DNA of 64,000 nt from Candidatus Wolfebacteria bacterium RIFOXYB1_FULL_54_12 (GCA_001793895.1 MGIT01000001.1:106508-170507); one strand, 5' to 3'. Counted from the stretch's first letter, positions 559 through 53,289 are shown. Made by a program: numbers and translations. Notes: generated by a model not told the origin, from the letters alone.

Positions 559-628
559 TGTCATCCTGAACTCGTTTCAGGATCTTATTGTCCATAAACG
601 AGATTCCGGCTCGTAGGCCGGAATGACA
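559..628. repeat. Composite GTCAT-hairpin repeat (two units in inverted orientation)
   Basis: The sequence is tgtcatcctgaactcgtttcaggatc...gagattccggctcgtaggccggaatgaca. Its ends, tgtcat and atgaca, are inverted. Confidence 0.9.
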
Positions 629-690
629 GCTCCTAACTCAAATCCCTTATAGAATACCCGTTAAACGTACCTTTGTCATCTTTCTTGCAA

Positions 691-805
691 TGTATCGACG
701 TTCAACGTCGATACAATCAATATTTGCGTCTTGCAATAACGCAAATATTGCCATTATTTAGCCATTACTTGCTTAAATTCAATTGAGCGACATCGAATGT
801 CGCTC
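691..805. other. Three consecutive perfect hairpins in the rodA/tsaD spacer
   Basis: Hairpin 1, 691-715: tgtatcgacgt-tca-acgtcgataca. Hairpin 2, 719-749: aatatttgcgt-cttgcaata-acgcaaatatt. Hairpin 3, 785-805: gagcgacat-cga-atgtcgctc. None has a T-run. Confidence 0.7.
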
Positions 806-812
806 ATATTCA

Positions 813-1958
813 TCATAAATTCAAATCCCCATTCGCCTCAATTTTATACTTCTTGCCACGCAAATAGTCGATATATCCCGAAACGGCAATCATCAACGCA
901 TTATCGGTAGAAAATTCGCTCACGATCAACAGTGGTCGATCTTTCTTTAGCGTGAACTTCTTTTCGATTGCTTCCGTAAACAAAGCACGCAAGGTGCGGT
1001 TGGCCGAAACTCCGCCCGAGATCATAATGGACTTCGCACCGAATTCTTCTACCGCGCGGAGCGTCTTTTTGATCAGTACATCCGCCGCCGCCTTTTGAAA
1101 ACTCGCGGCAATATCCGCTTTCGGAATACTTTTCCCCGCTTTCGTCAGATCGCGGATATAATACAGCACAGAGGTCTTCAGGCCGGAAAAACTGAAATTA
1201 TAATTTTTATGCCCGATCATCGGACGCGGGAAATCGATCGCCATCGGGTTGCCATCTTTCGCCAAGCGTTCGATTTCAGGCCCGCCCGGATACGGGAGGC
1301 CAATCAAACGCGCAACCTTGTCGAACGCCTCCCCCACCGCATCGTCAACCGTCTCGCCCAATTTTTTAAAATGGGTCAGGTCGTCCATTCTCAACAAAAT
1401 GGTATGACCCCCGCTGATGATCAACGCGATCGCGGGGAATATCCCCGCATTGTCATTCCCGCGGAGGCGGGAATCCACATCCTTACTTACCAAAAAACTA
1501 TATAAGTGCCCCTCCAAATGATTAGTGGGCACCAGCGGCTTGCCATATTTGGCCGCAAGCTCCTTTGCAAATTCAATGCCGGTCCACAATGCAGGTTCCA
1601 AACCAGGCCCAACGGTCACGGTAATGAAATCTACCCGATTCATAAAATCAGCCTCCCCCGCATTGTCATTCCCGCCCTTCTCTTTGTCATTCCCGCGGAG
1701 GCGGGAATCCACCACTATTTTATCAACAATCTCTTTAAATAATAGTGGCAAATTCTCCAAATGCGCGCGCTTTGCCAATCCCGGCACTACGCCGCCATAC
1801 GGCTGGTGCAGCTTGATCTGCGACGCGACCACATCGCCATGTACCTCAAACTTCGGCTTTTCCAAACCCCCGCTCGCCGTAACAAAAGAAAGGGCTGTTT
1901 CATCACAGCTCGTTTCAATCGACAAGATATACACCTTTTGTTTCTTCTCTAAAGACAT
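813..1958 (-). CDS. tsaD: tRNA N6-adenosine threonylcarbamoyltransferase TsaD (Kae1/Gcp family) carrying two repeat-derived in-frame insertions
   Basis: Family motifs seen: ILSIETSCDETA, TVTVGPGLEPAL, NHLEGH, ISGGHT, SGGVSAN. The peptide DSRLRGND occurs twice. Confidence 0.93.
   Translation of the reverse strand: MSLEKKQKVYILSIETSCDETALSFVTASGGLEKPKFEVHGDVVASQIKLHQPYGGVVPGLAKRAHLENLPLLFKEIVDKIVVDSRLRGNDKEKGGNDNAGEADFMNRVDFITVTVGPGLEPALWTGIEFAKELAAKYGKPLVPTNHLEGHLYSFLVSKDVDSRLRGNDNAGIFPAIALIISGGHTILLRMDDLTHFKKLGETVDDAVGEAFDKVARLIGLPYPGGPEIERLAKDGNPMAIDFPRPMIGHKNYNFSFSGLKTSVLYYIRDLTKAGKSIPKADIAASFQKAAADVLIKKTLRAVEEFGAKSIMISGGVSANRTLRALFTEAIEKKFTLKKDRPLLIVSEFSTDNALMIAVSGYIDYLRGKKYKIEANGDLNL
1451..1476. 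repeat. GTCAT-hairpin unit inside the tsaD CDS
   Basis: The sequence tgtcattcccgcggaggcgggaatcc, read on the minus strand in the tsaD frame, gives VDSRLRGNDNAG. Confidence 0.9.
1664..1710. repeat. GTCAT-hairpin unit plus a half unit inside the tsaD CDS
   Basis: The sequence tgtcattcccgcccttctctttgtcattcccgcggaggcgggaatcc encodes VDSRLRGNDKEKGGNDNAG in the tsaD frame. Confidence 0.9.
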
Positions 1959-2018
1959 AGCGAAATATATTTTAGCTTATCGCACCTTGCAGAACAATGC
2001 AAAAATCCATTAGCCATA

Positions 2019-2044
2019 AAGAAGAGGGCTTTAGCCCTCTTCTT
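2019..2044 (-). terminator. Hairpin downstream of the PQ-loop gene
   Basis: The structure is aagaagagggc-ttta-gccctcttctt, an 11-bp perfect stem. Confidence 0.6.
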
Positions 2045-2079
2045 ATCCATAAACTATGAACTGTTGGCTGTGAACTTTT

Positions 2080-2376
2080 TTATATCCCCCAATGTCGTAC
2101 TCCTTTCTTTTCATAGCGGATGATGCCGGAAAGCACCAGCCCTACGCCCAAAAAACCGAACAGGTTAATAACGATCAATGCAATGTTGTGCAACAAAACG
2201 CTGTACAGTAGCAACACAAAATATCCGAATGAAAGGATGCTGTAGGTCAACAACGAAACATCCTTTGCACTGCGCCGTTTATATATTTTTAACGCTTGCG
2301 GAATATTGGCCAAACCCATAACAATTCCCATGAGTCCCGCCAATGAAGCAAATAGTTGAGTAAAGTCGATCATCAA
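2080..2376 (-). CDS. SemiSWEET / PQ-loop small membrane transporter
   Basis: 98 aa with three hydrophobic helices. The PQ motif sits in LANIPQALKIYKRRSAKDVS. Confidence 0.7.
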   Translation of the reverse strand: MMIDFTQLFASLAGLMGIVMGLANIPQALKIYKRRSAKDVSLLTYSILSFGYFVLLLYSVLLHNIALIVINLFGFLGVGLVLSGIIRYEKKGVRHWGI

Positions 2377-2380
2377 TTTC

Positions 2381-2456
2381 TGTCATTCCCGTCCGCCAGC
2401 CGGCGGAGGAATCTATTTATAGAGTACTGGATTCCGGCTCGGAGGCCGGAATGACA
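2381..2456. repeat. Composite GTCAT-hairpin repeat
   Basis: tgtcattcccgtccgccagccggcggaggaatctatttatagagtactggattccggctcggaggccggaatgaca. Confidence 0.9.
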
Positions 2457-2474
2457 ATGCGGTGCCTGCAATAA

Positions 2475-2542: not shown

Positions 2543-2548
2543 GATCAG

Positions 2549-7922: not shown

Positions 7923-7990
7923 TTATACACCTATTCAAGATGTGCAATCATTATACATGGTTGGAATTTTTTTTCAATCCCAATCCCCTG

Positions 7991-8022
7991 TTATTGGTTA
8001 TAGGTTATTAGTTATTGGTTAT
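7991..8022. repeat. GGTTAT-type low-complexity repeat
   Basis: The sequence ttattggttataggttattagttattggttat lies between tRNA-Phe and tRNA-Pro. Confidence 0.8.
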
Positions 8023-8254: not shown

Positions 8255-8292
8255 AAACACCCCGATGTAAACTGAACTGCGGGGTGTTTTTT
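8255..8292. terminator. Bidirectional hairpin between tRNA-Arg and the PAS gene
   Basis: The stem acaccccg...cggggtgt is followed by tttttt. Confidence 0.65.
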
Positions 8293-8299
8293 GTATTCA

Positions 8300-10006
8300 T
8301 TAAGGGCAAATTTTGGGGGCAATATCCCGGGCAACGCCGGTAGTGCCAAGCAGCTCACCTACTTCGTTGTAAGTCGGCGTCTTGATCGTCTCTACCAAAA
8401 TAACATTACCTTTCGAGTCCGGCATGCCCTCTTCGATTCGTTTCTGCATGCGACCCTGCATAACGATCTTATCGTCAGCCATATATTTATCGGCGTACTC
8501 TTCGGGCCAGACATCGTGATCAGTCTTGCCAATGATATCCTCACGCCGTTTCCCTGCACGCGAAAGAAATGCTTCGTTGACCTCAAGATACTCGCCTGCC
8601 GCATTTTTCATCCACACCAAATCGGGAATGTTATCCAAACAAACGCGTTGCTGTAGCTGATACAGCTTCATCTTTTCCTCGGCGATAACCTGCTTGCTTA
8701 GATTCCACCCGGTACCGATGATCCCGATGTCGTTGCCCTTCGCGTCGCGCAACGGAGCAGCCGACCAGCGATACGGGATCGTTGTGCCGTCTTTTTTGAC
8801 AAGATGCGACCGAACCTCGGTATATCCTTTCACGTACGCATCATTGACCATGCCGATCACCAACGGTCGGTCGCGATCCGGAAGCAATTCAAATATCAAT
8901 TTATGGGAAAGTTCCTCCGCTGAATATCCGCTGGCGGTCTCTGCCATTCGATTCCACTTGACGATATTGCGCTCGGTATCCAATACATATACGACGTCAG
9001 GAATCGCATCCATAAGATTGCTTAGCTCGTTCAAGGATCTGCTAAGATTTTTTTCACTTTCCTGCAGATTGCGGTATGCCAATAGGCTCGTCAACCCGTC
9101 GGCCAATCGCCGGCTGATTTCCTGGAAAAGTTCCTGTTCGTCGGCCGTCCATACCCGTGGATGGGAGCACTGGTGCATGCCAAATATCCAAGGCTTGTCC
9201 AATTTTGGATGGACGGCGATAAGCATTTGAGATTGAACACCAAAGCGCCCTGTGGTAGATTTGTCTACCGGGTTTTCCGTACCGACGGTGTAGATCACCG
9301 GCTTCTGAGACGCCAAAACTTCACGCATGGCTTGGACCATGTCCGGACTATCCATCGGCACATCAATATTCAAGGCCTTGGCACCTGCATATTCCGGCTT
9401 GGTAACTTCCATGGGTATGCGATACGAGGGCGCTTCAGGATCGCACGGATAAAGAAGCCACGCTCGATCACAATCAAAAATAGAAAGTACCTTGCTGAGA
9501 ACATTGGTCAATATCTGCTCAGGATCAGTAGCCCCCTGCATTGATTGATTGATCTGATCCATGCTCTCAAAAAAGAGGCGCTTGGTCCGATCCTTTTCCT
9601 CTACATTTTTACGATCGGTAATATTGTCGAATGCGGCGGTAAAAAATCCCCGCTCGGCGCTATATACGGAAACGACGAACCACAGCTTGAACGGACTCAG
9701 ATAGATCTCTATTTTTTCCGGATTGCCGGTATCGGAGACCCGGGCATATGTTTCAAATAACTCGGGGTTGGTATTCCGTATATTAGGAACGAGCTCCGTA
9801 GCCCGCCTGCCGACAACCTGTTGTAGGCCGGTTAGCCATTCAAAAGAAGGGTTGACTTCAAGATACACAAAATCGACAGGCTTGCCCGCCTCGTCAAAAA
9901 TTATTTCACAATGGGCAAACCCGGAAAGCATGCTGTTAAACAACATTTGGTAATGTTCTATACCATGCTTCTTCATGTGATTTTTTACCTTCTCCGAGTA
10001 TTCCAT
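8300..10006 (-). CDS. Multi-sensor PAS-GAF-PAS-PAS protein with no recognisable output domain
   Basis: PAS-like blocks: MLFNSMLSGFAHCEII..VNPSFEWLTG, LMDAIPDVVYVLD..WNRMAETASGY and DNIPDLVWMKN..VNEAFLSRAG. The central segment is GAF-like. The protein ends ARDIAPKICP with no HisKA, GGDEF or HTH. Confidence 0.75.
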   Translation of the reverse strand: MEYSEKVKNHMKKHGIEHYQMLFNSMLSGFAHCEIIFDEAGKPVDFVYLEVNPSFEWLTGLQQVVGRRATELVPNIRNTNPELFETYARVSDTGNPEKIEIYLSPFKLWFVVSVYSAERGFFTAAFDNITDRKNVEEKDRTKRLFFESMDQINQSMQGATDPEQILTNVLSKVLSIFDCDRAWLLYPCDPEAPSYRIPMEVTKPEYAGAKALNIDVPMDSPDMVQAMREVLASQKPVIYTVGTENPVDKSTTGRFGVQSQMLIAVHPKLDKPWIFGMHQCSHPRVWTADEQELFQEISRRLADGLTSLLAYRNLQESEKNLSRSLNELSNLMDAIPDVVYVLDTERNIVKWNRMAETASGYSAEELSHKLIFELLPDRDRPLVIGMVNDAYVKGYTEVRSHLVKKDGTTIPYRWSAAPLRDAKGNDIGIIGTGWNLSKQVIAEEKMKLYQLQQRVCLDNIPDLVWMKNAAGEYLEVNEAFLSRAGKRREDIIGKTDHDVWPEEYADKYMADDKIVMQGRMQKRIEEGMPDSKGNVILVETIKTPTYNEVGELLGTTGVARDIAPKICP

Positions 10007-15470: not shown

Positions 15471-15654
15471 TGTCATTCCCGCGGAGGCGGGAATCTATTT
15501 AATACTGGATTCCCGCCTCCGCAGGGATGATACCGTCTCTAATTAATACATTACTCAGCGCATTGTCATTCCGGCCTAAGCCTGTCCGCCAACTGGAGGA
15601 AGCCGGAATCTTGTTGAAAGAACTCGAGATCCCGTGTCGAGGCACGGGATGACA
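15471..15654. repeat. Cluster of about four GTCAT-hairpin units
   Basis: The units are tgtcattcccgcggaggcgggaatc, ggattcccgcctccgcagggatga, tgtcattccggcctaagcc...ggaagccggaatc and gagatcccgtgtcgaggcacgggatgaca. Confidence 0.9.
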
Positions 15655-16116: not shown

Positions 16117-16189
16117 TGTCATTCCCGCGAAGGCGGGAATCCACTACGTTCATATAGATCCCTCCGCCAGTCGGCGGACGGGAATGACA
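16117..16189. repeat. Composite GTCAT-hairpin repeat
   Basis: tgtcattcccgcgaaggcgggaatccac...gatccctccgccagtcggcggacgggaatgaca. Confidence 0.9.
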
Positions 16190-17286: not shown

Positions 17287-17356
17287 TGTCATTCCGGCCT
17301 CCGAGCCGGAATCTTACCGTTTAACCGCGAGATCCTGAATCAAGTTCAGGATGACA
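17287..17356. repeat. Composite GTCAT-hairpin repeat
   Basis: tgtcattccggcctccgagccggaatc...gagatcctgaatcaagttcaggatgaca. Confidence 0.9.
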
Positions 17357-19408: not shown

Positions 19409-21829
19409 CTAATAAGTCGAATAGGCGTAGTCAAACACGGCATGAGCTACTGTCTCTAAACTTTTAGCACTACATTTATCGAGCGTATCGCCAGTCGTAT
19501 GATATGGCGGGTATTCAAAATCAATCAACAGGAAACTCGGAATTCCAGCTCGATTGAGCGGGGTGTGATCATCTTGGACACTTTGCCCAACCTTATCTTG
19601 AAAAACGTGGCTGTCCACTTTTTGCGCAATACTCCAAAATGCGTCCGCTTGAGACTGGGCATTTTGCACGGATGATTGCTCCTTGTAAATTCTCAAGTCT
19701 TTATCGCACACCATATCAAGAACAAGTGCGGATACCGGTATATTATTCCCATAAAGTTCGCTCAAATGTTCGGAAAAATAAGTAGAACCGAGAGGTCTCC
19801 AATTGCTATAATCACTGCCTTGATTTATATCTCCCTCTTCTCCATCAAAGAAAACGATGTCCACGCCAACACTCGGTATCACATGAGAATTGCCGAGTAT
19901 CCGCGCTAATTCCACAAGGACGGCAACACCCGAAGCAGAGTCGTTGCCCCCTGGCACTGGTTGATCTTTGTATACGTGATCCTTATCCGCAAGTTTTTTA
20001 CTGTCATAATGTGTCGCTAAAATAATGCGCCGTTCTTGGGTTGGGTATAGACGGCCTATGATATTCGATAATTTATGGATTTTACCGTCTGTCCCTTTGT
20101 AATCCCACGATTGTGTAATTACTTCGTTGGTTTGTTCTTTCATCTCCGCAATTAGAAATTTCTGCACGTTTTCATGCCCGGGTGCGCTCATGTGGCGCGG
20201 CCCATACCTTAGTTGTTGGTTTATCACGGCAAGCATTTCGTTGCCATCAATAAACGGTTTTTCCTTAAAAGTACGCCGGAGAACTTCGGACGTTAAGTAC
20301 TCAACCGGAGAAAAATTGTCGGTGAGAATTGGGTATGGAGACAAATTAAATCTGTCCAAGTTGATAACTTTATTTCGAAGCGAGCTAATGATTGAGTTCT
20401 CATTTTGCAGAATTGAAGCCGCGCTCAAATCAATTTTTTTATTACCATTCCATCCAACCAAAATAATATTTTGGGAATCTGTTTTTCCGGGAGTTTCAAC
20501 CGCAAAAAAATAACTATTTGGAAAAACACTTTGAAAAGTTTTTATCTCCGCAAAAATAAGAGATGGCTCTTGTCTTGATAAATCTCCGATTAAATTAGCG
20601 ATAAACAATCCATCGTCAGATAATTTCTCTTTTGCGATGGTAAAAAATTCCTGCGTTGTAAAGTGAGCAGGAATGGAAAAAAGAGAATGGTACGCATCGC
20701 TAAATATAAAATCATATTTTTTATTCGAATCCCAAAGCAGGCGACGACCATCTTCAGTATAATTGTATAGATTTGAATTGTCTTCTACGGCAAAATATTC
20801 TTTTGCTAATGCCAATAACGATGGTTCAATTTCTGAAACATCGAGTGTCGCGTTTGGCAACTCCGCTAAAAGGGCCTTCGGTATAGAATATGCGCCACCG
20901 CCTATAACTAAAGCATTTCGTACGTCCGGCTTGAAAACTTTGTAGAGAGAATAGTATTTCGTGTATTCATAAACGAGATCGGCCGGGTTATCCGAATCGA
21001 GAAACATCGCACCGGAACCACTCCGATCCTGTTGAAAAAATCTTGTCGGCCTGCTTTCAAACATACCATCGTAGATGGTGATTTTTTCGTAAATACCATC
21101 TTTGCTGTACAATACATCGCCTTTTGTTTGCTGAACCGCAACAATGGTAATAAGGGCTAAAGTGACAACGGCAACCAAAGACTGGGTTAGGCGTTTTTTG
21201 TCAAAACCAAATACCGTAAGTGGGATAAATCCGAGAAGGAAGAGAACAACTCCTGTGGCAATAAAAATATGGTCTATGCCAAAATTAGGTATAAGCACAA
21301 AACCCGCAAGTAGACTGCCAATGATACTCCCCAGAGTAGACCAAAAAAATATTTTACCCGAAACACTTCCCACTCCCTGCTCTGGTGCTTGAAGACTCTG
21401 TAATTTTATAGCATAGGGCGACAAAGTGCCGAGCAATAACGCAGGAACAAGGAACAGCAGCAAAGAAGAGATCAGTGGTCCGCTTGTAAGTGAAAGATTT
21501 TTGCTTAAAATTGGAAGAATTATCAAACCAAAAAAATGAAATACAAGGACAAGAAGACCGCTTACGAGAATTATCCCGAAGAACCACCGTAACGATGGGT
21601 GACGATCTGCAAATTTTCCGCCCACATAATATCCTATGCTAAGAGCTGCGAGTATAACACTTATTATACTTGATACAGTAAAAATTGTGTTTCCATAGTG
21701 AGGCGAAAGGACACGGACGGCAACGACTTCAATAATCAAAACACACGCCCCAGTGATAAATACTGAGATTGGCAGCAAATTTTGCTTTAAAAATTTGTTC
21801 ATGTATTTAATCATGGTAGCAGTTTGCAT
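19409..21829 (-). CDS. Fusion protein: polytopic membrane spermidine-synthase-like domain plus M28 peptidase/glutaminyl-cyclase-like domain
   Basis: The N-terminus has about 7 TM helices. The SAM-fold motif is ALVIGGGAYSIP. The C-terminal M28 motifs are ATHYDS, GGNDSASGVAVLVELARIL, FFDGEEG and DDHTPL. Confidence 0.8.
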   Translation of the reverse strand: MQTATMIKYMNKFLKQNLLPISVFITGACVLIIEVVAVRVLSPHYGNTIFTVSSIISVILAALSIGYYVGGKFADRHPSLRWFFGIILVSGLLVLVFHFFGLIILPILSKNLSLTSGPLISSLLLFLVPALLLGTLSPYAIKLQSLQAPEQGVGSVSGKIFFWSTLGSIIGSLLAGFVLIPNFGIDHIFIATGVVLFLLGFIPLTVFGFDKKRLTQSLVAVVTLALITIVAVQQTKGDVLYSKDGIYEKITIYDGMFESRPTRFFQQDRSGSGAMFLDSDNPADLVYEYTKYYSLYKVFKPDVRNALVIGGGAYSIPKALLAELPNATLDVSEIEPSLLALAKEYFAVEDNSNLYNYTEDGRRLLWDSNKKYDFIFSDAYHSLFSIPAHFTTQEFFTIAKEKLSDDGLFIANLIGDLSRQEPSLIFAEIKTFQSVFPNSYFFAVETPGKTDSQNIILVGWNGNKKIDLSAASILQNENSIISSLRNKVINLDRFNLSPYPILTDNFSPVEYLTSEVLRRTFKEKPFIDGNEMLAVINQQLRYGPRHMSAPGHENVQKFLIAEMKEQTNEVITQSWDYKGTDGKIHKLSNIIGRLYPTQERRIILATHYDSKKLADKDHVYKDQPVPGGNDSASGVAVLVELARILGNSHVIPSVGVDIVFFDGEEGDINQGSDYSNWRPLGSTYFSEHLSELYGNNIPVSALVLDMVCDKDLRIYKEQSSVQNAQSQADAFWSIAQKVDSHVFQDKVGQSVQDDHTPLNRAGIPSFLLIDFEYPPYHTTGDTLDKCSAKSLETVAHAVFDYAYSTY

Positions 21830-22052: not shown

Positions 22053-22173
22053 TGTCATATACCGGCGTCCGCCCGCAACGATGTAGCAACTTCTGGCGGG
22101 GAGGCCGGAATCCGGTAGTATATTTCCACAAAGACACTTAGTACTCTGGATCCCGATTTTCATCGGGATGACA
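22053..22173. repeat. Degenerate GTCAT-hairpin cluster
   Basis: tgtcataccggcgtccgcccgc...ggcggggaggccggaatcc...ctggatcccgattttcatcgggatgaca. Confidence 0.8.
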
Positions 22174-26665: not shown

Positions 26666-27760
26666 TCAACGCATAACCCCACCTCCGATGACAACTCCAT
26701 CGGCATCGTAAAATACGGCAGATTGTCCCACGGCAACAAACCGTTGCGGTTCATCGAATTGCAACCGATAGGCCTCACCATCGGCGACCAATGTCGCCGC
26801 AAACAACGGCTGGCGATAGCGGATGCGCACCATGACCGGAATGGACTTCGGGGGGGCTATGGCGCACATGCCCATGAAATTAAGTTCAACAAGGCCAATA
26901 TCCGCACATGCCTGCTCAAGCAAATGATCATCATGCGAAACCGTGATGACATTGCTTGCGACATCTTTTTTGACCACAAAATACGCCGGTCCGCCCCCGA
27001 CATGCAATCCGTGCCGTTGCCCGATGGTATAAAACCACACACCCTCGTGCTCGCCCACCTTCACTCCGTCGACGGTAACAATGTCGCCCTTCCGTTTCGG
27101 CAGATACTGTTCCAAAAATTCACGCAACGATATCTTCCCCAAAAAACAAATACCTTGGGAATCTTTTTTCTGCGCCGTCGGAAGTCCCGCGGCCGCCGCA
27201 ATCTCCCTGATCTTCGGCTTTTCATAGGCACCGATCGGAAACAAACAATGCCGCAGTTGCTCCTGCGTAAGCGTCCACAAAAAATAACTCTGATCTTTAT
27301 TCCCATCAATCCCTTTCTGTAATGAGTAAGTAGTTTCCTGTTTTTTGTTATCGGTTATAGGTTGTAGGTTATAGGTTGCGCTTCGCGCATAATGCCCCGT
27401 CGCCACATAATCAGCCCCCAACGCAAGCGCCTTTTGCAAAAACACGCCAAACTTGATTTCCTTGTTGCACATCACATCCGGGTTCGGGGTAATGCCGTTG
27501 CGATACCCGTTGACCAAATATTCCACCACGAATTGTTTGTATTCTTCTTCAAGATCGATGACATAAAACGGGATGCCCAAATGTTCGGCAACGCGCCGCG
27601 CATCTTCCGCTTCGCGGTCTTGGCATCCGTCCATGTTATATCCTTTAATGAACGCGCCGATCACATCATAAGTCCCCTGCTCGCGCAACAAAAAAGCGGC
27701 GACACTCGAATCGACGCCGCCCGACATCATGACAAATACTTTTGGCTTTAAACCATTCAT
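26666..27760 (-). CDS. mnmA: tRNA 2-thiouridine(34) synthase MnmA with a repeat-derived in-frame insertion
   Basis: Motifs seen: the PP-loop MMSGGVDSSVAA, ATGHYAR and NKDQSYFLW. The segment ATYNLQPITDNKKQETTY is encoded by the GGTTAT repeat. Confidence 0.92.
   Translation of the reverse strand: MNGLKPKVFVMMSGGVDSSVAAFLLREQGTYDVIGAFIKGYNMDGCQDREAEDARRVAEHLGIPFYVIDLEEEYKQFVVEYLVNGYRNGITPNPDVMCNKEIKFGVFLQKALALGADYVATGHYARSATYNLQPITDNKKQETTYSLQKGIDGNKDQSYFLWTLTQEQLRHCLFPIGAYEKPKIREIAAAAGLPTAQKKDSQGICFLGKISLREFLEQYLPKRKGDIVTVDGVKVGEHEGVWFYTIGQRHGLHVGGGPAYFVVKKDVASNVITVSHDDHLLEQACADIGLVELNFMGMCAIAPPKSIPVMVRIRYRQPLFAATLVADGEAYRLQFDEPQRFVAVGQSAVFYDADGVVIGGGVMR
27347..27378. repeat. GGTTAT-type repeat inside the mnmA CDS
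   Basis: gttatcggttataggttgtaggttataggttg. Confidence 0.8.
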
Positions 27761-29026: not shown

Positions 29027-29088
29027 TGTCATTCCCGCGGAGGCGGGAATCTATTTAATACTGGATTCCCGCCTCCGCGGGAATGACA
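29027..29088. repeat. Archetypal 62-bp composite GTCAT-hairpin element
   Basis: The sequence is tgtcattcccgcggaggcgggaatctatttaatactggattcccgcctccgcgggaatgaca. It consists of two inverted units around a tatttaatactgg core. Confidence 0.95.
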
Positions 29089-29106: not shown

Positions 29107-30858
29107 TTACAAATCCCCCTTCTCGCTCTTGTGTGGTTGCTTTGGTCGTTCTTCGGGGGTAGCTTCTTTTCTTTTTTGTAATGATTCTTCGATTGCCTTT
29201 TTCAGGTCATCAATATTGACCGCCTTTTTCTCGAACACATGTTTTGGCCTATCCTGCGGCATACTGCGAAGTCTATCGTCCATCGCTGGGCGATGCGGCA
29301 CAGGGCTGGCGCCACGATCTCCGCTAAATGGCCGCACGCTCGTCGGCCTATCGGTCAACGGCCCGTCCTGGGATGCCCGCGCAAACGACGGTCTGTCCTG
29401 CCTGCCCGCCGTAGTGTTAGCGGAGGAGGAATCCGCCGGCTGGCGGACGAAGGGTTTACGCTCGAAAGAAGGCTTCGGCGCTTGCGCACGAGGGGTTAGA
29501 GTCGAGCTCAACGACCGCTCGTCACGGCGCATAACCTTATCTGCCATGGATGTCTTACCCGACCCCATATATTCCTTGGCGATCATTTCATCCACCAACG
29601 CCTTAGGCATGGAATAATTTCTGCGGGAGTTTTCAATAATGACATCCTCGTAATTCGGCTGCGGGATTGGATACGGCGGCAAGGTCTCTGCCGAAAATGG
29701 TCTCGATGCCTGGCCGTCAACCAACAATTTAAGGTAAATATGCCGGTTTGACAAGCCGATCATATCTTGCGGCGTAAACTCGGGTTCGAATTCCTTTTCA
29801 AAAAATACGGCGTCGATGGCGCCAACGCGAAACATAGCCAAGGTGCCAATGTTGCCGACGATTGCCTCTGCAAGCCCTTCTTCTTTTTTAAGCTGATCGA
29901 CATACTGGTGGGCCAGCGTCAAGCCAAGTCCGTATTTGCGCGCCTCGGCGAAGATCTTCGTAAATGAACCGGTAGAAAAGTTTTGAAACTCGTCGATGTA
30001 CAAAAAGAACGGCCTGCGTTCGCTCTCGGGAATATCGATGCGGCTCATGGCGGCAAGCTGGATTTTGGTAATGATCATGGCGCCGAGCAATGCGGAATTG
30101 TCTTCGCCGAGACGGCCCTGCGAAAGATTGCAGATCAATATCTTGCCTTCATCCATTGCCTTGCGCATGTCGATGGTCGACTTCGGCTGGCCGATGATGT
30201 TACGGATGACCGGATTGGAACTGAACTGCCCTACCTTGTTCTGCAACGGTGCAATGGCCTCGGTCATGAACTTGTCGGTATATTTTGCAAATTCGTTTTC
30301 CCAGAACGACTTAATGACCGGGTCCTTTAAATTGGAAACGACCTTCAGGCGGTACTCTTTCTCCGCAAGCATGCGCATAATACTCAGTAAGGTCGTTCCC
30401 GGATATTCCAAAAGCGCCAACAGGGTATTGTTCAAAATATATTCCATGCGCGCAGACCATGCGTCCACCCAGATTTTTTGAAACACACCCATCACCGCCG
30501 ACGCGACAAGGTGCGCATGTTCGTCACCGACGCGTTCAAGCGGATTAAATCCGACCGGATTTTCGATATCGGCCGGATTGACATAAATGACATCCTTGAT
30601 GCGGTCTTCTGGCACATGCTTAAGCAACTCTTCGACGAATTCGCCATGCGGGTCGAGCACGGCAACACCAAATCCGTTCTTGATGTCGTTGATCATCAAG
30701 TTTTTCATCATGGTGGTCTTACCCGTGCCGCTCTTCCCGACGATGTACATATGCCGCAGGCGGTCGTTCATTTTGATGCCAAAATTAACGCTTTGATTGC
30801 GAAAATTCGTCTTTGCAAAAATTGAAATTTCTTTGTTGCTCATAGGGCTATTTGTCAT
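29107..30858 (-). CDS. VirD4/TraD/TrwB-like (type IV coupling protein-like) P-loop ATPase with a disordered C-terminal tail and no N-terminal TM segment
   Basis: Walker A is in VGKSGTGKTT and Walker B in FFLYIDEFQNF. LTLAHQYVDQL and GNIGTLAMFRVG are also present. The last about 150 aa are P/R/S-rich low complexity. Confidence 0.75.
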   Translation of the reverse strand: MTNSPMSNKEISIFAKTNFRNQSVNFGIKMNDRLRHMYIVGKSGTGKTTMMKNLMINDIKNGFGVAVLDPHGEFVEELLKHVPEDRIKDVIYVNPADIENPVGFNPLERVGDEHAHLVASAVMGVFQKIWVDAWSARMEYILNNTLLALLEYPGTTLLSIMRMLAEKEYRLKVVSNLKDPVIKSFWENEFAKYTDKFMTEAIAPLQNKVGQFSSNPVIRNIIGQPKSTIDMRKAMDEGKILICNLSQGRLGEDNSALLGAMIITKIQLAAMSRIDIPESERRPFFLYIDEFQNFSTGSFTKIFAEARKYGLGLTLAHQYVDQLKKEEGLAEAIVGNIGTLAMFRVGAIDAVFFEKEFEPEFTPQDMIGLSNRHIYLKLLVDGQASRPFSAETLPPYPIPQPNYEDVIIENSRRNYSMPKALVDEMIAKEYMGSGKTSMADKVMRRDERSLSSTLTPRAQAPKPSFERKPFVRQPADSSSANTTAGRQDRPSFARASQDGPLTDRPTSVRPFSGDRGASPVPHRPAMDDRLRSMPQDRPKHVFEKKAVNIDDLKKAIEESLQKRKEATPEERPKQPHKSEKGDL

Positions 30859-30990
30859 TCCGAATTTATTTCGGAATCTCGTGGTAAAATGCCAAGATCC
30901 TGTATCCGTCAGCCGACGAACGGAAGGATCTGTTTTGCATTGTCATACCGGCGGGTGAGGGCCTGTCCTCGACCTGATCGGGGACCTGTC
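30853..30990. repeat. GTCAT-hairpin units, partly degenerate
   Basis: tgtcattccgaatttatttcggaatc; gatcctgtatccgtcagccgacgaacggaaggatc; tgtcataccggcgggtgagggcc... Confidence 0.8.
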
Positions 30991-31028: not shown

Positions 31029-31120
31029 ATTCCGTTATCCGTTATCGGTCATCCGTTTTCGTTTTCGGTTATAGGTTATTAGTTGTAGGTTTTAGGTTAT
31101 TGGTTATCAGTCATTGGTTA
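31029..31120. repeat. CCGTTAT/GGTTAT repeat tract downstream of the 447-aa gene (includes its stop codon)
   Basis: attccgttatccgttatcggtcatccgttttcgttttcggttataggttattagttgtaggttttaggttattggttatcagtcattggtta. Confidence 0.85.
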
Positions 31121-32461
31121 TTCTATCGGCAAATTCTCCGGAGGCTCGCCTTTCTTTGCCTCGATACGGCGCATACTCGGCGCGGTAACCAACGATGACG
31201 GAACATGGTAAAGCGTAGCCAACTCTTCTATGGAAAAGACGGGAGCCTTCTTTATCATGATCCGCTGGCGGTATGCAAAGAACATTGCCCTCTTTTTCAA
31301 AAATTCCTGATGCTTTTTCCACGCCGGAAACAGCCATGCCTTGAAACCTTTCGGCGGGTTTACCGACGTATCCCTGTTTGGCTTGAACGAATTGATATGC
31401 TGGGAACCGAATTGCTTGAATGAGCCGATGATCCCCCCTATATAGGACTTATGAAACGTTTCCTGCCGATCGATAAACACTGCACGCACGCTCACTTCAT
31501 AGCACAGTTTGGATATTTTTCCTTCAATGCCTTCAAGTACTTCCTTTTCAGAAAAGCTCAAAGACGCAATCGTCTTGGGTGGAGCGTCGGATTTTTTCGG
31601 CGGCTCGGGCCATTCCGGAGTGCTTATGAATACAAGAAAAAAATTCTTGATCCACATGACAAGATGATCAAATATGCTCAATTTAGGAGCGACCTTCACC
31701 TCACGGCCTAACATTTTATCGACGATCGCCTGTCCCTTCTTTTTGTAGTCGCTCGTTTTTTCGCCGGTCGGCTTGGATATATATTGCACGAAGATCATTT
31801 CATTCTCGCGGAGCTTCGACATGGTTTCCAAAATGACCGTAAGCGGATCAAGTCGTTGCTCTTCCTCTTTCTCTTCAAAATAGGCGTATGTCTTAATCGG
31901 ATATGCGCTGTCTTTGTCGAGAACCATATCGACGCCCCATACATCATAAACATCGTTGGGCAACATCATCGGCAAGAAGCTGAGATAGTCTTCGACAAGG
32001 GCTATTTCCGCGGCGGGATATTGCGCAAACAATGCGGACTCCACCAAATTGCGGTGCTCGGCAGGTACGCGCACATAAAAATATACACCGCCGCTTCGCC
32101 CGACCATTTCAAACGAAAGGGCGTTTTGAACCTTCCCTTTGATATTTTCATCCCACCATTTGATCTCGCCGGCATAGGTGCCATGTACCGTGGCAAACAC
32201 CTGTTCCATGGATTTCGGACTGCGCAAATTTTCCTTGGGGATGCGCAATTCAAGCACGACCCACTTTTGCGCCTTCTTTGCCGCTTTTTTGTTCGAGTCG
32301 ATGTACAGGTCCCAAAGATAGAACGCCAAAACAACCGGAACGACGGCCCACCATACGTACGAAAAGACCTCGCCAATGCTTTGCGCAATGCCAAGGATGA
32401 TATTCTGCACGACCGGTGTGATCGAAAAATAGTCCAGTAGAAAGTCTGAAATGTTTGCCAT
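31118..32461 (-). CDS. Membrane protein (N-terminal TM hairpin plus large soluble domain), partner of the T4CP-like ATPase
   Basis: The TM region is VVQNIILGIAQSIGEVFSYVWWAVVPVVLAFYLWDLYI, followed by VLELRIPKENLRSPKSMEQVFATVHG. No family was recognised. Confidence 0.7.
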   Translation of the reverse strand: MANISDFLLDYFSITPVVQNIILGIAQSIGEVFSYVWWAVVPVVLAFYLWDLYIDSNKKAAKKAQKWVVLELRIPKENLRSPKSMEQVFATVHGTYAGEIKWWDENIKGKVQNALSFEMVGRSGGVYFYVRVPAEHRNLVESALFAQYPAAEIALVEDYLSFLPMMLPNDVYDVWGVDMVLDKDSAYPIKTYAYFEEKEEEQRLDPLTVILETMSKLRENEMIFVQYISKPTGEKTSDYKKKGQAIVDKMLGREVKVAPKLSIFDHLVMWIKNFFLVFISTPEWPEPPKKSDAPPKTIASLSFSEKEVLEGIEGKISKLCYEVSVRAVFIDRQETFHKSYIGGIIGSFKQFGSQHINSFKPNRDTSVNPPKGFKAWLFPAWKKHQEFLKKRAMFFAYRQRIMIKKAPVFSIEELATLYHVPSSLVTAPSMRRIEAKKGEPPENLPIE

Positions 32462-32523: not shown

Positions 32524-32575
32524 ATTCCGTTATCCGTTATCCGTTTTCGGTTATTGGTTATTGGTTATCCGTTAT
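32524..32575. repeat. CCGTTAT/GGTTAT repeat tract upstream of the 447-aa gene
   Basis: The sequence attccgttatccgttatccgttttcggttattggttattggttatccgttat is in the same orientation as 31029-31120 and shares its first 18 nt. Confidence 0.85.
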
Positions 32576-37741: not shown

Positions 37742-37846
37742 TGTCATCCTGATCCGTCAGCCGACGGATTCAGGATCTCCCCGCAAAAACACGAGATTCC
37801 GGCTCCCCGTATCGTGGTACGGGGCAGGCTCCGGGCCAGAATGACA
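37742..37846. repeat. GTCAT-hairpin cluster
   Basis: tgtcatcctgatccgtcagccgacggattcaggatc...gagattccggctccccgtatcgtggtacggggcaggctccgggccagaatgaca. Confidence 0.85.
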
Positions 37847-37865: not shown

Positions 37866-38825
37866 TTACTTAATACCCCTCTTAAGCACTGTTGTCAATT
37901 TTTTCAATTGCGCATCATAGGTGGCCTTGTCGCGCGCTTCCACATTTAACCGAACTAACGATTCGGTATTGGAAAGCCGCACGTTGAACCACCAATCGGG
38001 ATCGGCAAAGTCCATGGCAATGCCATCGATCTTCGATATAGCCTTTGCGTCTTTTTTATATGTCCGTTCTATGTGCGCAAACAATCCGGCGGGCGCAATG
38101 GAAGACGAAACAGGGACATTGATCTCCGGCGACCGATACGTTTCCGGCAAGAGGTCTACGAATTCCGACAGCGCATACGGCAATCGCGCAAGCGCGTTCA
38201 GCACCGCGACGGCCGCCATGATGCCCGAATCGCAATAAAAAAAGTTTTTAAAATAATAGTGCCCCGATCGCTCGCACCCGAATTCGGCGCCATTTTTCCG
38301 CATGGCGTGTTTCATGGCGTAATGCCCTGTCTTGCCCGCAATGCGTTTTGCGCCAAGCAGCGACTCGTCCCGAGTGAAATCGAGGGATTGCCGACGCACA
38401 AGCCATCCGTCTTTTGCATCGGTCACAAATCGATTCGGACGCAAGGACCACAGCAACAGATACGCCACGACATCCGGGTCCACAAAACGACCCTTGTCGT
38501 CGACGAAGAAAACACGGTCTCCATCCGCATCAAAGATGACACCTATATCGGCACCATTGGAAACAACGCTCTTTTGTAACGCGCGCAACGAACCGGCATG
38601 CAACGGATCCGGCGCATGATTCGGGAAGTTCCCATCAGGCTGACCATTCAAAATAGCCCATTCCCTTTTTTCCTTTTTCCTTTTTCCTTTTTCCCTGAGT
38701 GCCTCCATGATCGGCCCTGTAGCCCCGCTGGAACAATCAAAAACAACATCAAGCGTTTTTGCATCGTCGCGCAAAAACCCGTTCAAAAACGAAACATATT
38801 CATCGACAAAGGGTGAGGTATTCAT
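37866..38825 (-). CDS. Phosphomannomutase/phosphoglucomutase family protein lacking N-terminal domain I (possible gene remnant)
   Basis: Present: the metal loop FDADGDR, the sugar loop GCERSGH and the phosphate-binding VRLSNTESLVRLNVEA. No TASHNP-type phosphoserine loop is seen. The ORF starts where domain II normally begins. Confidence 0.7.
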   Translation of the reverse strand: MNTSPFVDEYVSFLNGFLRDDAKTLDVVFDCSSGATGPIMEALREKGKRKKEKREWAILNGQPDGNFPNHAPDPLHAGSLRALQKSVVSNGADIGVIFDADGDRVFFVDDKGRFVDPDVVAYLLLWSLRPNRFVTDAKDGWLVRRQSLDFTRDESLLGAKRIAGKTGHYAMKHAMRKNGAEFGCERSGHYYFKNFFYCDSGIMAAVAVLNALARLPYALSEFVDLLPETYRSPEINVPVSSSIAPAGLFAHIERTYKKDAKAISKIDGIAMDFADPDWWFNVRLSNTESLVRLNVEARDKATYDAQLKKLTTVLKRGIK

Positions 38826-45326: not shown

Positions 45327-45496
45327 TGTCATTCCGAGCCTGCTGTCATCCTGAACTCGTTTCAGGATCTCGCGTACAAACAGTGAGCTTCTGAAATAAA
45401 TTCAGAATGACACTTTAAAAAATATTGTCATTCCCGTCCGCCCACCAGCAGAGGAATCCAGTACCCCGCATTGTCATTCCCGCGAAAGCGGGAATC
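45327..45496. repeat. Cluster of about five GTCAT-hairpin units
   Basis: tgtcattccgagcc; tgtcatcctgaactcgtttcaggatc; ttctgaaataaattcagaatgaca; tgtcattcccgtccgcccaccagcagaggaatcc; tgtcattcccgcgaaagcgggaatc. Confidence 0.9.
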
Positions 45497-47796: not shown

Positions 47797-47904
47797 TGTC
47801 ATTCCGGCGGAGGCCGGAATGACAACATAAGAAGTTTGTCATCCTGAACTCGTTTCAGGATCTCATGGTAGTGCGATGAGATTCCGGCCTCCGCCGGAAT
47901 GACA
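47797..47904. repeat. Three GTCAT-hairpin units
   Basis: tgtcattccggcggaggccggaatgaca; tgtcatcctgaactcgtttcaggatc; gagattccggcctccgccggaatgaca. Confidence 0.95.
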
Positions 47905-48502: not shown

Positions 48503-48609
48503 ACTGTATATGAATTATGAATACTAAATAATGGATTATGGTAAGGAATATGTCAAGAATCTCATCTGCATTCATTCATTATTCATGATTCATGCTTCTT
48601 GATTCACGC

Positions 48610-49429: not shown

Positions 49430-49490
49430 AAGAATATAATAAGTTAGACAGTAATTACCATACACTAAACCTTGAGAAAATGCAAGCCAT

Positions 49491-51494: not shown

Positions 51495-51538
51495 GTCTTA
51501 GAAAATAAAAGGCCATTGTCTGGCGCTTATGTAAATTC

Positions 51539-51564
51539 TGTCATTCCCGCGGAGGCGGGAATCC
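51539..51564. repeat. Single GTCAT-hairpin unit
   Basis: tgtcattcccgcggaggcgggaatcc. Confidence 0.9.
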
Positions 51565-51653
51565 ATTACCATTATGATAGCAAAAACGAGCCAAAAAAGC
51601 CAGCGGCCAGAGGAGTAAAGCCCCTTCAAAACAACCGGGACGCTACAACAAAA

Positions 51654-51695
51654 AAAGCCCGATGGCACACCCTATAAAGGTGCCCACCGGGCTTT
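51654..51695 (-). terminator. Terminator after the 202-aa orphan
   Basis: The outer stem is aaagcccg/cgggcttt, with a T-run on the minus strand. Confidence 0.65.
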
Positions 51696-51714
51696 GCCCT
51701 AAAAAGAAAGGGGG

Positions 51715-52323
51715 CTATTCCAATGCCAACGGGATGCAGGAAGGGACGTCTATTTCACAACCCTCCCGATCCAAACAGATCGTGGTCCAATTGACCTCCG
51801 GCGAATATGATTTTCCAATGATCAAGCAACCCGTCGCCAGCACATTGCCCTCAGTCAGCTCATTCGGAAACTTGGACCGTTTATTACTTCGCAGGGCAAT
51901 CGGAAGTCGAGGAGCCAACTCCACCCAGCCGGTTTTATCAAGACGGATAAGAACCGAGCTATTAAACCCCCTGCGCGGAGCTTCAACGACGATCTCACCA
52001 CTACCTGTTAAAATATCTCCCGGCATAAGCGCCCGCGGCTGGGAAATTGTCGGCGTGCGCAACATGCTTGAACCGTTGCTCTTTTGCCTCTCGTAATATT
52101 CGCGAAGATCGTATGAACGCTCGTGGATCTCGTCGGGCCAACCGGGAGTTTCCAGCTCGGCCAGTCTTCCCGCTCTCATAAGGATCATTGTATTGCTTTT
52201 GCTATCAGCAAAAACGATCCCGACATGATCGCAGGCCTTGTTAGTCCGGATGACGCAATGCTTTCCTTTGTGCTCGCCCGAAATAATACGAAATACCTTA
52301 CTGTCCGGCCTAATGATAGACAT
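51715..52323 (-). CDS. Hypothetical protein (202 aa)
   Basis: The ATG at 52323 is preceded by gaggagg. No family was recognised. Confidence 0.55.
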   Translation of the reverse strand: MSIIRPDSKVFRIISGEHKGKHCVIRTNKACDHVGIVFADSKSNTMILMRAGRLAELETPGWPDEIHERSYDLREYYERQKSNGSSMLRTPTISQPRALMPGDILTGSGEIVVEAPRRGFNSSVLIRLDKTGWVELAPRLPIALRSNKRSKFPNELTEGNVLATGCLIIGKSYSPEVNWTTICLDREGCEIDVPSCIPLALE

Positions 52324-52426
52324 GCCCACACCCTCCTCTTTCTATGGATATATATGTAAAATAAGAGCTAACTCAAACTAACACCTGCGTTGCGCACTGT
52401 CAAACGATATTTAAAAAAATATTTTG

Positions 52427-52497
52427 AGCGGGTAAAGGGAATCGAACCCTCGCTTCAACCTTGGGAAGGTTGCGCACTACCACTATGCAATACCCGC
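52427..52497 (-). tRNA. tRNA-Gly (CCC)
   Basis: Reverse complement: GCGGGTATTGCATAGTGGTAGTGCGCAACCTTCCCAAGGTTGAAGCGAGGGTTCGATTCCCTTTACCCGCT. The anticodon arm is CAACC-TTCCCAA-GGTTG. Confidence 0.88.
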
Positions 52498-52748
52498 AAA
52501 AACGATACAGGCATTATAAAGAACAACCGGACAAAAGTGAAGTCATGGAAATAAAAAAACGACCTCTATGGTCGACGCGAATAAAGAAAACAAACCCGGT
52601 TGATGGCGATCGAACGAACCCAGTATTCCACGCAAGAAGAATGTAAGAATTCCCATATGAAATTGTCTGCCCATGCGCACAATAAAATACTGTATTTAGT
52701 ATAGGGCAACCAAATAAGATATACAACACCCGCACACCTTTTCTGTAA

Positions 52749-53289
52749 CCCCGGCGGAGCTCGCCACGTGGAAAGTAGAAACTTTCTTTACGTGGGCCGG
52801 AGGAGTCCAGCGTTTTCCGCGATAGCGGTAGCTGGACATTCAGACCCTAACAATGCCGGGAATGACGATGCGAGATTGGGTGTCATCCCCGTCCGTCCGC
52901 CAGCCGGCGGACGGAGGGATCCATGGTTTTTGCAGTAGTAGGGCTGGGATACCCAGACTCTGGATTCCCGTTTTCACGGGAATGACAATACCGAGGTGAC
53001 AAAGCAAGAAAATACTCATACAAAAAGGTTGTGACCCCGGCGGAGCTCGCCACGTGGTCCGCCAATGGCGGATCGGAATGACACCATCCACGCATTGTCA
53101 TGTCGACGCCTACCCGCCTTGGTCGGGAAGGCCGGTATCCGGTGTCTTGCATTGTCATTCCGAGAGTAGCGGAGCGGAGCCAAGGAATCTGTTTTTAGTA
53201 CGGATCCCTGCTCCACCTCCGCCAGCTGGCGGATATGGCGGCACGCGGTCGATTTAATTCCGCTTCGCTATATTGCACTCGGGATGACA
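52749..53289. repeat. About 540-bp non-coding tract built from degenerate GTCAT-hairpin units plus a 23-bp duplicate
   Basis: Units include ccgggaatgac, tgtcatccccgtccgtccgccagccggcggacggagggatcc, ctggattcccgttttcacgggaatgaca, ggatcggaatgaca, tgtcatgtcgacgcc, tgtcattccgagagtagcggagcggagccaaggaatc and ctcgggatgaca. The 23-mer ccccggcggagctcgccacgtgg occurs at 52749 and at 53035. Confidence 0.85.

Follow-up and report, generated by a model that had tools for sequence, protein, structure and literature searches.

The short hairpin repeats dispersed over a 64,000-nucleotide stretch of DNA from Candidatus Wolfebacteria (the window), an uncultivated CPR bacterium of Rifle aquifer groundwater, belong by their sequence features to a known repeat family, that of the Neisseria transformation sequence (NTS) and the Ssn-related motifs (SRMs), described together with the GIY-YIG single-stranded DNA (ssDNA) nuclease Ssn (Nat Commun 2025, PMC11893778). 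No CPR lineage is named in the text of that paper; the family is now seen in a CPR bacterium, with copies in frame in an essential gene. The units of the window are probably the Wolfebacteria population of NTS/SRM repeats, recognised by a Wolfebacteria Ssn and spread by copying, with paired units as forms that lack ssn.

Units of the window and their stems

The pattern GTCATYC-N8-20-GRATC has 24 matches in the window versus 0.57 ± 0.71 expected from dinucleotide shuffles, none of 100 of which reached 24, and a covariance model derived from 22 units detects about 31 GTCAT-hairpin-ATC units at E<1, reverse-strand echoes of the palindromes being left out of this count. This bears out the repeat family recognised in a preliminary description of the same DNA: each of the 15 loci given there contains units where they had been placed, and the stem types tcccgc, tccggc, cctgaa, tccgaa and cccgtgcc are all found, the last in the form cccgtg(cc), together with cccgat, tcccgt and long-stem forms. 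The accompanying statement that units fill nearly every long spacer was too strong; of the 14 spacers that measure 170 bp or more, 9 contain units, and of the 41 that measure 60 bp or more, 14 do.

In the alignment of 22 window units, 99.4% of the 176 stem cells are standard pairs, both sides have changed at five of the eight stem pairs, and compensatory cells number 35 versus 10.7 in shuffles (0 of 500 as high). Outside the window, 20 loci contributed 120 more units; their alignment, which was fitted to the covariance model, has 99.8% of cells paired, compensatory changes at six of the eight pairs, and 134 compensatory cells versus 26 in shuffles (again 0 of 500). The earlier observation that the stems vary and always stay paired thus holds, and the covariation analysis suggested with it gives a compensatory excess in both sets. 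All of GTCAT 5' of the stem is invariant or at least 90% conserved in the 22 aligned units; within its GTC, the G is at least 90% conserved and the T and C are invariant, and GTC is conserved likewise in the 120 model-retrieved units from other loci. The C 3' of the palindrome is at least 90% conserved in the 22-unit alignment, the sole exception being the symmetric unit at 47798. When folded as ssDNA, every tested unit is predicted to form an 8-bp hairpin of -6 to -12 kcal/mol (z of -3.2 to -4.8), in which GTC and the 3' C remain unpaired. These data support the hairpin and its oriented flanks, and not the stem sequence, as the conserved feature.

The preliminary description ascribed this pattern to selection on structure rather than simple copying. 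Its first half stands and its second does not, as an identical 24-mer is shared by six window units and a 63-bp doublet recurs in the window at 96.8% identity, the level at which the doublet at 15472-15531 matches that at 29028. Structural constraint and copying both act on the units.

Kinship with the NTS and ssn genes in relatives

The Neisseria protein SsnA (94 aa, GIY-YIG) binds the NTS hairpin as ssDNA only and cuts just upstream of it; binding requires the stem and the 3' C, which is the most critical base, and cleavage requires the 5' GTC (PMC11893778). The determinants mapped for the NTS and SRMs run from GTC, before the palindrome, through an ATYCC...GGRAT hairpin to a C that follows it (PMC11893778), and the window units have them. 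Against the 28-nt Neisseria NTS consensus, CGTCATTCCCGCGMAVGCGGGAATCYRG, nine window units have three mismatches or fewer (one unit has one, two units have two), where none is expected. These matches are confined to the tcccgc/tcccgt subfamily, whose nine units also match ATTCCC-N8-GGGAAT, the pattern of the Neisseria repeat dRS3. This pattern had been noted before and taken as a pattern-level resemblance only; it is indeed present, but the resemblance extends to the full NTS. We regard the family as already known because of these matches, and because the invariant GTC and the 3' C are the very positions that govern cleavage and binding by SsnA. The oriented architecture is also shared: GTCAT, a hairpin starting with ATTCC, then ATC-YRG.

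The published SRM search pattern, HGTCWYN(0-2)YYVSBRHN(0-5)WNVSBRGN(0-2)RNCYNB, was built by hand from 29 genomes (PMC11893778). It matches 4 of the approximately 31 units versus 0.13 expected. That most window units fall outside it is a point against our explanation; they differ from it in loop and stem letters (GGAG loops, loops of 5-6 nt, long stems), not in the flanks. The window further departs from the described NTS/SRM systems in its CPR host, in the coexistence of many stem families and loop lengths in one genome, in the placement of most units in tight inward-facing doublets with gaps of 12-17 nt, in the copies in frame in tsaD, as compared with 2% of NTS intragenic in N. meningitidis (PMC11893778), and in having no ssn.

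Stable, covarying hairpins between co-directional genes might instead work as RNA, selection in intergenic regions having favoured them as regulatory structures of the transcript, for example as terminators or stabilising hairpins. However, no T-run follows the hairpin (ATC is followed by YA or YC), units occur in both orientations relative to the flanking genes and also as inverted pairs, two loci lie inside coding sequence, antisense to tsaD, and no Rfam family is found at the gathering score. The unpaired GTC and C fit the code of a DNA nuclease, and SsnA does not act on RNA (PMC11893778). We consider an RNA-level role quite unlikely, and of the "DNA or RNA structure" proposed earlier we favour the DNA reading, because Ssn acts on ssDNA and leaves RNA untouched.

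The units could also be double-stranded sites for a site-specific recombinase or a dimeric protein, with symmetry maintained and not the hairpin. Palindromes bound by dimers likewise evolve symmetrically, and dRS3 of Neisseria is a known phage recombinase target, used for integration by filamentous-phage recombinases of the Piv/IS110 type (PMC11893778). Yet the flanks differ, GTC preceding the palindrome and C following it, which gives the unit an orientation; stem length varies and loops range from 4 to more than 20 nt, which a dimer site would not tolerate; and domain searches of the window ORFs found no recombinase or prophage. We give this explanation, too, little probability.

Neither ssn nor a remnant of it is present in the window or in 10 kb of flanking DNA on each side, which counts against our explanation. 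Two Rifle Wolfebacteria assemblies, GCA_001793935.1 and GCA_001793975.1, encode a 93-aa protein (P0019) that matches PF01541 and has Y6, Y17 and E64 at the same residue numbers as those mutated in N. meningitidis SsnA. Its gene is enclosed by inward-facing units at 7962-7985 (+) and 8287-8310 (-), 16 nt upstream and 5 nt downstream of it, so that in these sibling genomes the units flank ssn on both sides. Homologous ORFs occur between NTS-like units in two unrelated contigs (L046 and L106), in the same order of forward unit, ssn and reverse unit. With a single GIY-YIG domain, the length of about 94 aa, the catalytic residues and the flanking SRMs, P0019 can be assigned, as a predicted protein, to the Ssn family of nucleases. 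The unit-flanked nuclease gene that the preliminary description proposed to look for thus exists in sibling Wolfebacteria.

In the relatives L140 and L141, an ssn whose third codon is a stop lies, flanked by units, between tRNA-Gly and the wHTH gene. This interrupted ssn occupies the position syntenic to the largest cluster of the window (52855-53289), which consists of at least six whole or partial units, mostly long-stem. Adjoining the cluster, 53477-53938 encodes a protein of GIY-YIG fold that is not an Ssn; it went unmentioned in the preliminary description, which was right in reporting no transposase, RAYT or integrase, as none is found among the domains of the window ORFs (Y1_Tnp included).

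Inward-facing doublets

Nine of the ten neighbouring unit pairs no more than 45 nt apart in the window face inward, and eight of those nine have gaps of 12-17 nt; at other CPR-type loci the same holds for 25 of 31 close pairs, mostly 12-20 nt apart. The head-to-head composites reported earlier are therefore confirmed. They measure 60-103 bp, and most join two different stems: cctgaa 560-584 (+) with tccggc 602-627 (-) across 17 nt (560-627); long-stem 2382-2413 (+) with tccggc 2430-2455 (-) across 16 nt (2382-2455); long-loop tccggc 15565-15610 (+) with cccgtg 15628-15653 (-) across 17 nt (15565-15653); tcccgc 16118-16141 (+) with long-stem 16157-16188 (-) across 15 nt (16118-16188); and tccggc 17288-17313 (+) with cctgaa 17331-17355 (-) across 17 nt (17288-17355). 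Both arms are long-stem in the doublet at 37743-37845 (37743-37777, +, and 37795-37845, -, 17-nt gap), and the one at 15472-15531 has tcccgc at 15472-15495 (+) and a degenerate partner at about 15509-15531 (-). At 29028-29087 two tcccgc units form a perfect doublet with a 12-nt gap.

Other loci are less regular. A long variant unit, GTCATataccggc...gccggaatc (22054-22112, +), precedes a cccgat unit at 22149-22172 (-) in the locus 22054-22172, and a tccgaa unit at 30854-30878 (+) is followed by a degenerate inverted partner (30854-30930). The cluster at 45328-45496 begins with a truncated unit, cctgaa 45345-45369 (+) and its partner at about 45383-45421 (-), and continues with long-stem 45427-45458 (+) and tcccgc 45473-45496 (+), the latter one mismatch away from the Neisseria NTS. 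The locus 47798-47903 combines a symmetric hairpin with GTCAT on both strands (47798-47823) and a doublet (47838-47862, +, and 47880-47903, -). Single units are as common as doublets; one of them, of the tcccgc type, lies in the spacer upstream of gyrB (51540-51563, +), and the spacer near gyrB in the relative L144, alignable with it only in part, has no unit.

Abundant short extragenic palindromes, often in inverted doublets, with a conserved single-stranded motif on the 5' side of the hairpin and with repeats on both sides of a small cognate gene, recall REP/REPIN elements, which could be moved by a RAYT, a Y1 transposase of the IS200/IS605 type, whose gene would lie in another part of the genome; the doublet at 29028-29087 can alternatively fold as a single REPIN-like hairpin of 26 bp (-34.5 kcal/mol). 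REPs carry a 5' tetranucleotide of the GTAG type, however, and the motif here is GTCAT; the arms of window doublets are usually not copies of each other, and two different stems make the REPIN hairpin impossible in most of them. The gene enclosed by units in relatives is the GIY-YIG ssn and not an HUH Y1 enzyme, and no Y1 transposase domain is found in the annotated ORFs of the window or its flanks. We consider this origin very unlikely. Assignment to REP/REPIN-RAYT was rejected on the GTCAT motif and on the absence of Y1_Tnp from the window ORFs and precomputed annotations.

Multicopy composites of 60-103 bp with inverted termini, located in spacers, might also be taken for MITEs, that is, non-autonomous deletion derivatives of an IS with a DDE transposase and terminal repeats TGTCAT...ATGACA. 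Reading the flanks of six clean doublets (at 560, 2382, 16118, 17288, 29028 and 47838) revealed no target-site duplications or direct repeats beside them; this sets the units apart from ordinary MITEs derived from a DDE-type IS. The frequency of single units, the often unrelated stems of the two arms and the absence of any transposase from the window speak against it as well, and what would be the "terminal repeat" forms a conserved, covarying hairpin of its own. A MITE origin is scarcely credible, and this assignment was rejected for want of target-site duplications and of a parent IS in the window.

Neisseria intergenic mosaic elements (NIMEs) are short segments between inverted copies of dRS3, and this bracketing resembles the window doublets. 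They differ in the segment between the arms, 50-150 bp as opposed to 12-17 nt here, while the window doublets have heterogeneous stems and come from another phylum.

Under the NTS/SRM explanation that we prefer, each unit would act as an oriented ssDNA hairpin, composed of an unpaired GTC, a stem of at least 8 bp starting with AT(T/C)C, a loop and an unpaired C, and a Wolfebacteria Ssn, for example the sibling 93-aa protein, would recognise it as SsnA does the NTS. Such recognition would explain why the stems change only in a compensatory manner and GTC and C are fixed. The doublets look like ssn-less miniatures of the unit-ssn-unit module, from which they may derive, since they share the inward-facing layout found around ssn, with gaps of 12-17 nt; copying may have carried units and doublets into spacers and into protein loops that tolerate them. 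In the cell, and by analogy alone, Ssn would likely cleave unit-bearing ssDNA in the course of DNA uptake, recombination or replication.

It is possible, though in our opinion doubtful, that unit-ssn-unit is an autonomous mobile element in which a GIY-YIG nuclease replaces the transposase, that the doublets are its non-autonomous forms, and that in-frame insertion into the surface loops of essential CPR proteins such as TsaD has occurred repeatedly. If true, prokaryotic transposons would include a class with a new mechanism, and reduced genomes would have a means of varying their protein loops. Ssn is not known to mobilise DNA. Each strand of a doublet presents a single arm in the orientation that can be cut, so that simple two-cut excision does not follow.

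Units inside tsaD and turnover between lineages

Two of the 15 loci listed earlier lie not in spacers but in frame inside tsaD (813-1958, -; 381 aa; Pfam TsaD, 1.1e-71), which had been missed. At loop site 2, a single tcccgc unit (1452-1475, +), antisense to tsaD, is translated as DSRLRGND; at loop site 1, a truncated unit and a full one (1665-1709, +, the full unit at 1686-1709) are translated as DSRLRGNDKEKGGND. Against T. maritima TsaD (6n9a_D) and against the 353-aa TsaD forms of Wolfebacteria, residues 82-107 and about 157-167 of the protein stand out as insertions. In related Wolfebacteria, the two loop sites have different units, different orientations, or none, and the tsaD-ftsW spacer contains different unit types in the relative L157 and in the window.

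Comparison with an empty site, at a DNA identity of 78%, did not delimit the insertion cleanly. Strains at 99.85-99.99% identity show no gain or loss of units, and recent mobility is therefore not demonstrated.

Rickettsia palindromic elements (RPEs) are palindromic repeats found in frame in genes of essential proteins, where they are tolerated in loops, and the units in tsaD are likewise in-frame palindromes in a conserved gene. The likeness is one of behaviour; RPEs, at 100-150 bp, are longer than the window units. Rickettsia is among the genomes with more than 300 SRMs (PMC11893778).

The hairpin repeats and the Ssn recognition code

The family of GTCAT-hairpin-ATC repeats proposed in the preliminary description is real. 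The pattern given there has 24 matches in the window against 0.57 expected, all 15 loci on its list contain units, and with a covariance model trained on 22 units, about 31 are detected at E<1. The aligned unit reads T-GTC-AT, followed by six variable stem bases, a loop of 4-6, six complementary bases, AT and C. The 5' G, T, C, A and T and the 3' C are invariant or nearly so in the 22-unit alignment, and the long-stem and long-loop forms have identical ends. The variable stems do stay paired, in 99.4% of the cells across eight stem positions, with double-sided changes at five of the eight, and pairing falls to 15-59% once the partner is shifted by one to three columns. Compensatory cells number 35, as compared to 10.7 in shuffles (0/500). 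A further, independent 120 units were collected at 20 loci beyond the window, among them loci of other lineages of the Candidate Phyla Radiation (CPR), of an Ignavibacteriales genome and of viral-collection contigs; they show 99.8% pairing, compensatory changes at 6/8 pairs and 134 compensatory cells versus 26 (0/500), in an alignment that was fitted to the model and therefore leans towards structure. Every unit folded computationally as single-stranded DNA forms the hairpin predicted for it, at -6 to -12 kcal/mol. The earlier sense of a repeat family under structural constraint was correct. The statement on long spacers, nearly all of which units were said to fill, was too strong: they occur in 9 of the 14 spacers that reach 170 bp and in 14 of the 41 that reach 60 bp.

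Two variants of the unit may be mentioned. The symmetric unit GTCATTCCGGCGGAGGCCGGAATGAC (window 47798-47823) has GTCAT on both strands and lacks the 3' C either way. About nine units share an extension, (C)CCCGCATT or GCATT, directly 5' of GTCAT (for example at 1443-1451, 1656-1664 and 45464-45472); cleavage by SsnA in Neisseria falls in this region.

The repeats are a well-described family, part of a system that appeared in print in 2025 (PMC11893778). Two definitions come from that paper: the Neisseria Transformation Sequence (NTS, 28 nt), CGTCATTCCCGCGMAVGCGGGAATCYRG, within which the older dRS3 repeat lies, and a wider repeat class, the Ssn-related motifs (SRM). SsnA, a single-domain GIY-YIG protein of 94 aa, binds and cuts NTS as single-stranded DNA only, with no action on the opposite strand, double-stranded DNA or RNA; binding needs the palindrome and above all the C right after it, and cleavage needs the three nucleotides right before it (PMC11893778). 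Genes for Ssn typically have such repeats on their flanks, and in Neisseria Ssn reduces transformation by NTS-bearing DNA (PMC11893778).

The fixed positions of the 22-unit alignment are exactly those that govern SsnA binding and cleavage. Nine window units are within three mismatches of NTS, with 0 expected. The hand-built SRM pattern of that paper fits only four (0.13 expected), and the other units differ from it in the loop, by letters or by length, or in the make-up of the stem, so that the variety of units in this genome exceeds the coverage of the pattern.

Two other functions of the hairpins are disfavoured. A role at the RNA level would have to accommodate the mixed orientations of the units, a hairpin without a T-run, the location of some units antisense to the coding sequence of tsaD, and flanks that fit the code of a DNA nuclease; at the gathering score, the Rfam matches in the window are tRNAs only. 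A binding site for a dimer on double-stranded DNA agrees poorly with the asymmetric flanks and with variable lengths of both stem and loop.

Ssn genes and inward-facing doublets

No ssn gene was found in the window or in its flanks, of which 10 kb per side could be covered and which contain further units; a tblastn search of the window and of loci from the same genome, with a Wolfebacteria Ssn as query, gave nothing below E=9. The relatives L140 and L141 (a Wolfebacteria assembly, GCA_003508115.1) have a canonical ssn with tccggc units on its flanks. It lies in a spacer with tRNA-Gly at one end and a conserved wHTH gene at the other. Window 52.5-53.5 kb is the syntenic stretch, and there the window lacks ssn and carries its largest unit cluster. 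The ssn of L140 (5439-5730, minus strand; same coordinates in L141) has TAA at codon 3 (ATG AAA TAA TAT TAC...), and the start chosen by the gene caller is an internal GTG, with loss of the GIY motif; this copy may be a pseudogene.

The Ssn of L140 and L141, used as a protein query, has at least 7,900 homologues, and the matches at 70-80% identity among those listed come from Wolfebacteria, Pacebacteria, Omnitrophica, Zixibacteria, Latescibacteria and others. The best full-length match among the matches listed, P0019, is encoded in the Rifle Wolfebacteria assemblies GCA_001793935.1 and GCA_001793975.1; one of its sources is RIFOXYD12_FULL_48_21, of the lineage whose wHTH protein clusters with that of the window at 90% identity or more. 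P0019 is 93 aa long and shares Y6, Y17 and E64 with Neisseria SsnA, in which these same residue numbers were mutated. Its gene has a unit on either side, forward at 16 nt upstream and reverse at 5 nt downstream, and the same order of forward unit, ssn and reverse unit recurs in the unrelated contigs L046 and L106. If the units were REP elements, a RAYT would be expected as their partner; this reading is disfavoured, as the 5' motif of the unit is different, no Y1 transposase was found among the window ORFs, and the gene that units enclose in relatives is ssn. The Ssn of Wolfebacteria would be predicted to act on units of the type found in the window.

Units also tend to face each other where no gene lies between them. 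Nine of the ten pairs of window neighbours no more than 45 nt apart are inward-facing, eight of these nine being spaced 12-17 nt, and so are 25 of 31 close pairs at other CPR-type loci; about a quarter would be expected if orientation were random. The arms of these doublets are oriented like the two units around ssn, from which we infer that doublets are ssn-less miniatures of the unit-ssn-unit module. Most doublets join differing stem types, and therefore fold as two separate hairpins and not as one long one, which sets them apart from REPINs. The doublet junction GGAATCTATTTA-N0-6-TACTGGATTCC, with 23 specified bases, was found by pattern scan at three loci in genome contigs and seven in metagenome contigs; the genome of the window itself was not among them. 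Genomes of Roizmanbacteria, of another Wolfebacteria and of Ignavibacteriales share this junction (L130 6739-6767, L131 4158-4181 and L132 2710-2737). Such sharing points either to the horizontal spread of entire doublets or to constraint on the sequence between the arms. How NTS and SRM repeats spread was left open in 2025, with a part for Ssn raised as a hypothesis in the discussion (PMC11893778), and Ssn might likewise take part in the spread of the units described here.

Units in tsaD and their turnover

The tsaD ORF (381 aa) contains units at 1452-1475 and 1665-1709, both in frame and antisense to the gene, which are conceptually translated as DSRLRGNDNAG and DSRLRGNDKEKGGNDNAG. With T. 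maritima TsaD as the reference, both stretches are insertions. The TsaD proteins of related Wolfebacteria are 76-86% identical to that of the window (BLASTP), and the first insertion is missing in 8 of 14 aligned homologues. The second-site DSRLRGND unit is present in P0154 and in no other of the 14, and this second insertion is the only one that P0154 has in common with the window. P0151, P0152 and P0157 have another insertion at the first site, GVTPAEAGVQ...LRRNDN, which on back-translation gives two units of other types as an inward-facing doublet, and P0156 and P0173 have additional variants. Because homologues carry different insertions, or none, at these places, the two TsaD loops are recurrent sites of landing or replacement, which is evidence of turnover on the between-species scale. 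Extension and unit together make 33 nt in tsaD, or 11 codons.

When tsaD was aligned at the DNA level with that of L157, a relative without the insertions (78% identity), neither clean boundaries nor target duplications emerged. Were the units MITEs of the DDE type, target-site duplications and a parent IS would be looked for; the six clean doublets have no such duplications on their flanks, and no parent IS was found in the window, so that this origin is disfavoured as well.

Close strains show no movement of units. Proteins identical to those of the window are recorded from Candidatus Wolfebacteria bacterium RIFOXYB1_FULL_54_12 and RIFOXYB2_FULL_49_7, so that the host is a member of the CPR from the Rifle aquifer. 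The window has a GC content of approximately 49%, and the majority of its genes are on the minus strand. ENA scaffold ANAN16-1_SAMN03842445 scaffold_93 (120,615 bp) is 100% identical to the window across 22 kb, and one window protein is encoded in identical sequence on this scaffold and in NCBI GCA_001793905.1. There are no unit indels between the window and the contigs L002, L003, L004 and L126, at 99.85-100% identity. The single 113-bp difference among these near-identical strains is accounted for by Ns at a scaffold gap within rpoC: the ENA scaffold L125 has, at 20316-20425, a stretch of Ns together with unrelated sequence of approximately 100 bp, both missing from the contig of another sample (L126). 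This looks like a scaffolding artefact and not a repeat polymorphism.

The Ssn/SRM system, characterised until now in Neisseria and a few Proteobacteria, is thereby extended to CPR, organisms with tiny genomes that depend on DNA uptake; yet a large share of the spacer DNA of this one consists of hairpin units. The published SRM pattern would miss the majority of window units, so SRM abundance is perhaps under-counted wherever stems and loops differ likewise. Strict inward doublets mirroring the flanks of ssn and recurrent lineage-specific in-frame TsaD insertions provide testable clues to the spread, and the stems, a natural series between fixed GTC and C flanks, offer a ready-made panel of specificities should Ssn be engineered into a single-stranded DNA tool. 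The CPR host, stem diversity past the published motif, the doublets and the TsaD insertions are what is distinctive here, and we consider them of moderate interest.

Other features of the window

A second repeat class consists of 7-bp tandem arrays (GGTTATA, TCCGTTA, GTTATTG) in spacers, at 7990-8022, 27347-27377, 31031-31122, 32526-32575 and 48574-48606. One 7-bp array is within the mnmA ORF, where it reads as ATYNLQPITDN, and seven-residue motifs, for example TRYEIRD and SNYEFKITN, in the TsaD loops of other lineages look like similar heptamer arrays in frame.

Domain matches were noted in three minus-strand genes. Close to the editing domain of leucyl-tRNA synthetase (61336-63969, continuing past the window end; called product 941 aa), an ASCH domain (PF04266, 1.8e-11) is inserted. 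An 806-aa protein (19409-21829) matches Peptidase_M28 above the Pfam threshold, with weaker matches to MFS_1 (below threshold) and spermine/spermidine synthase. The phosphoglucomutase/phosphomannomutase ORF (37866-38825) comprises domains II-IV only, without domain I, and its upstream neighbour is an NYN-domain gene.
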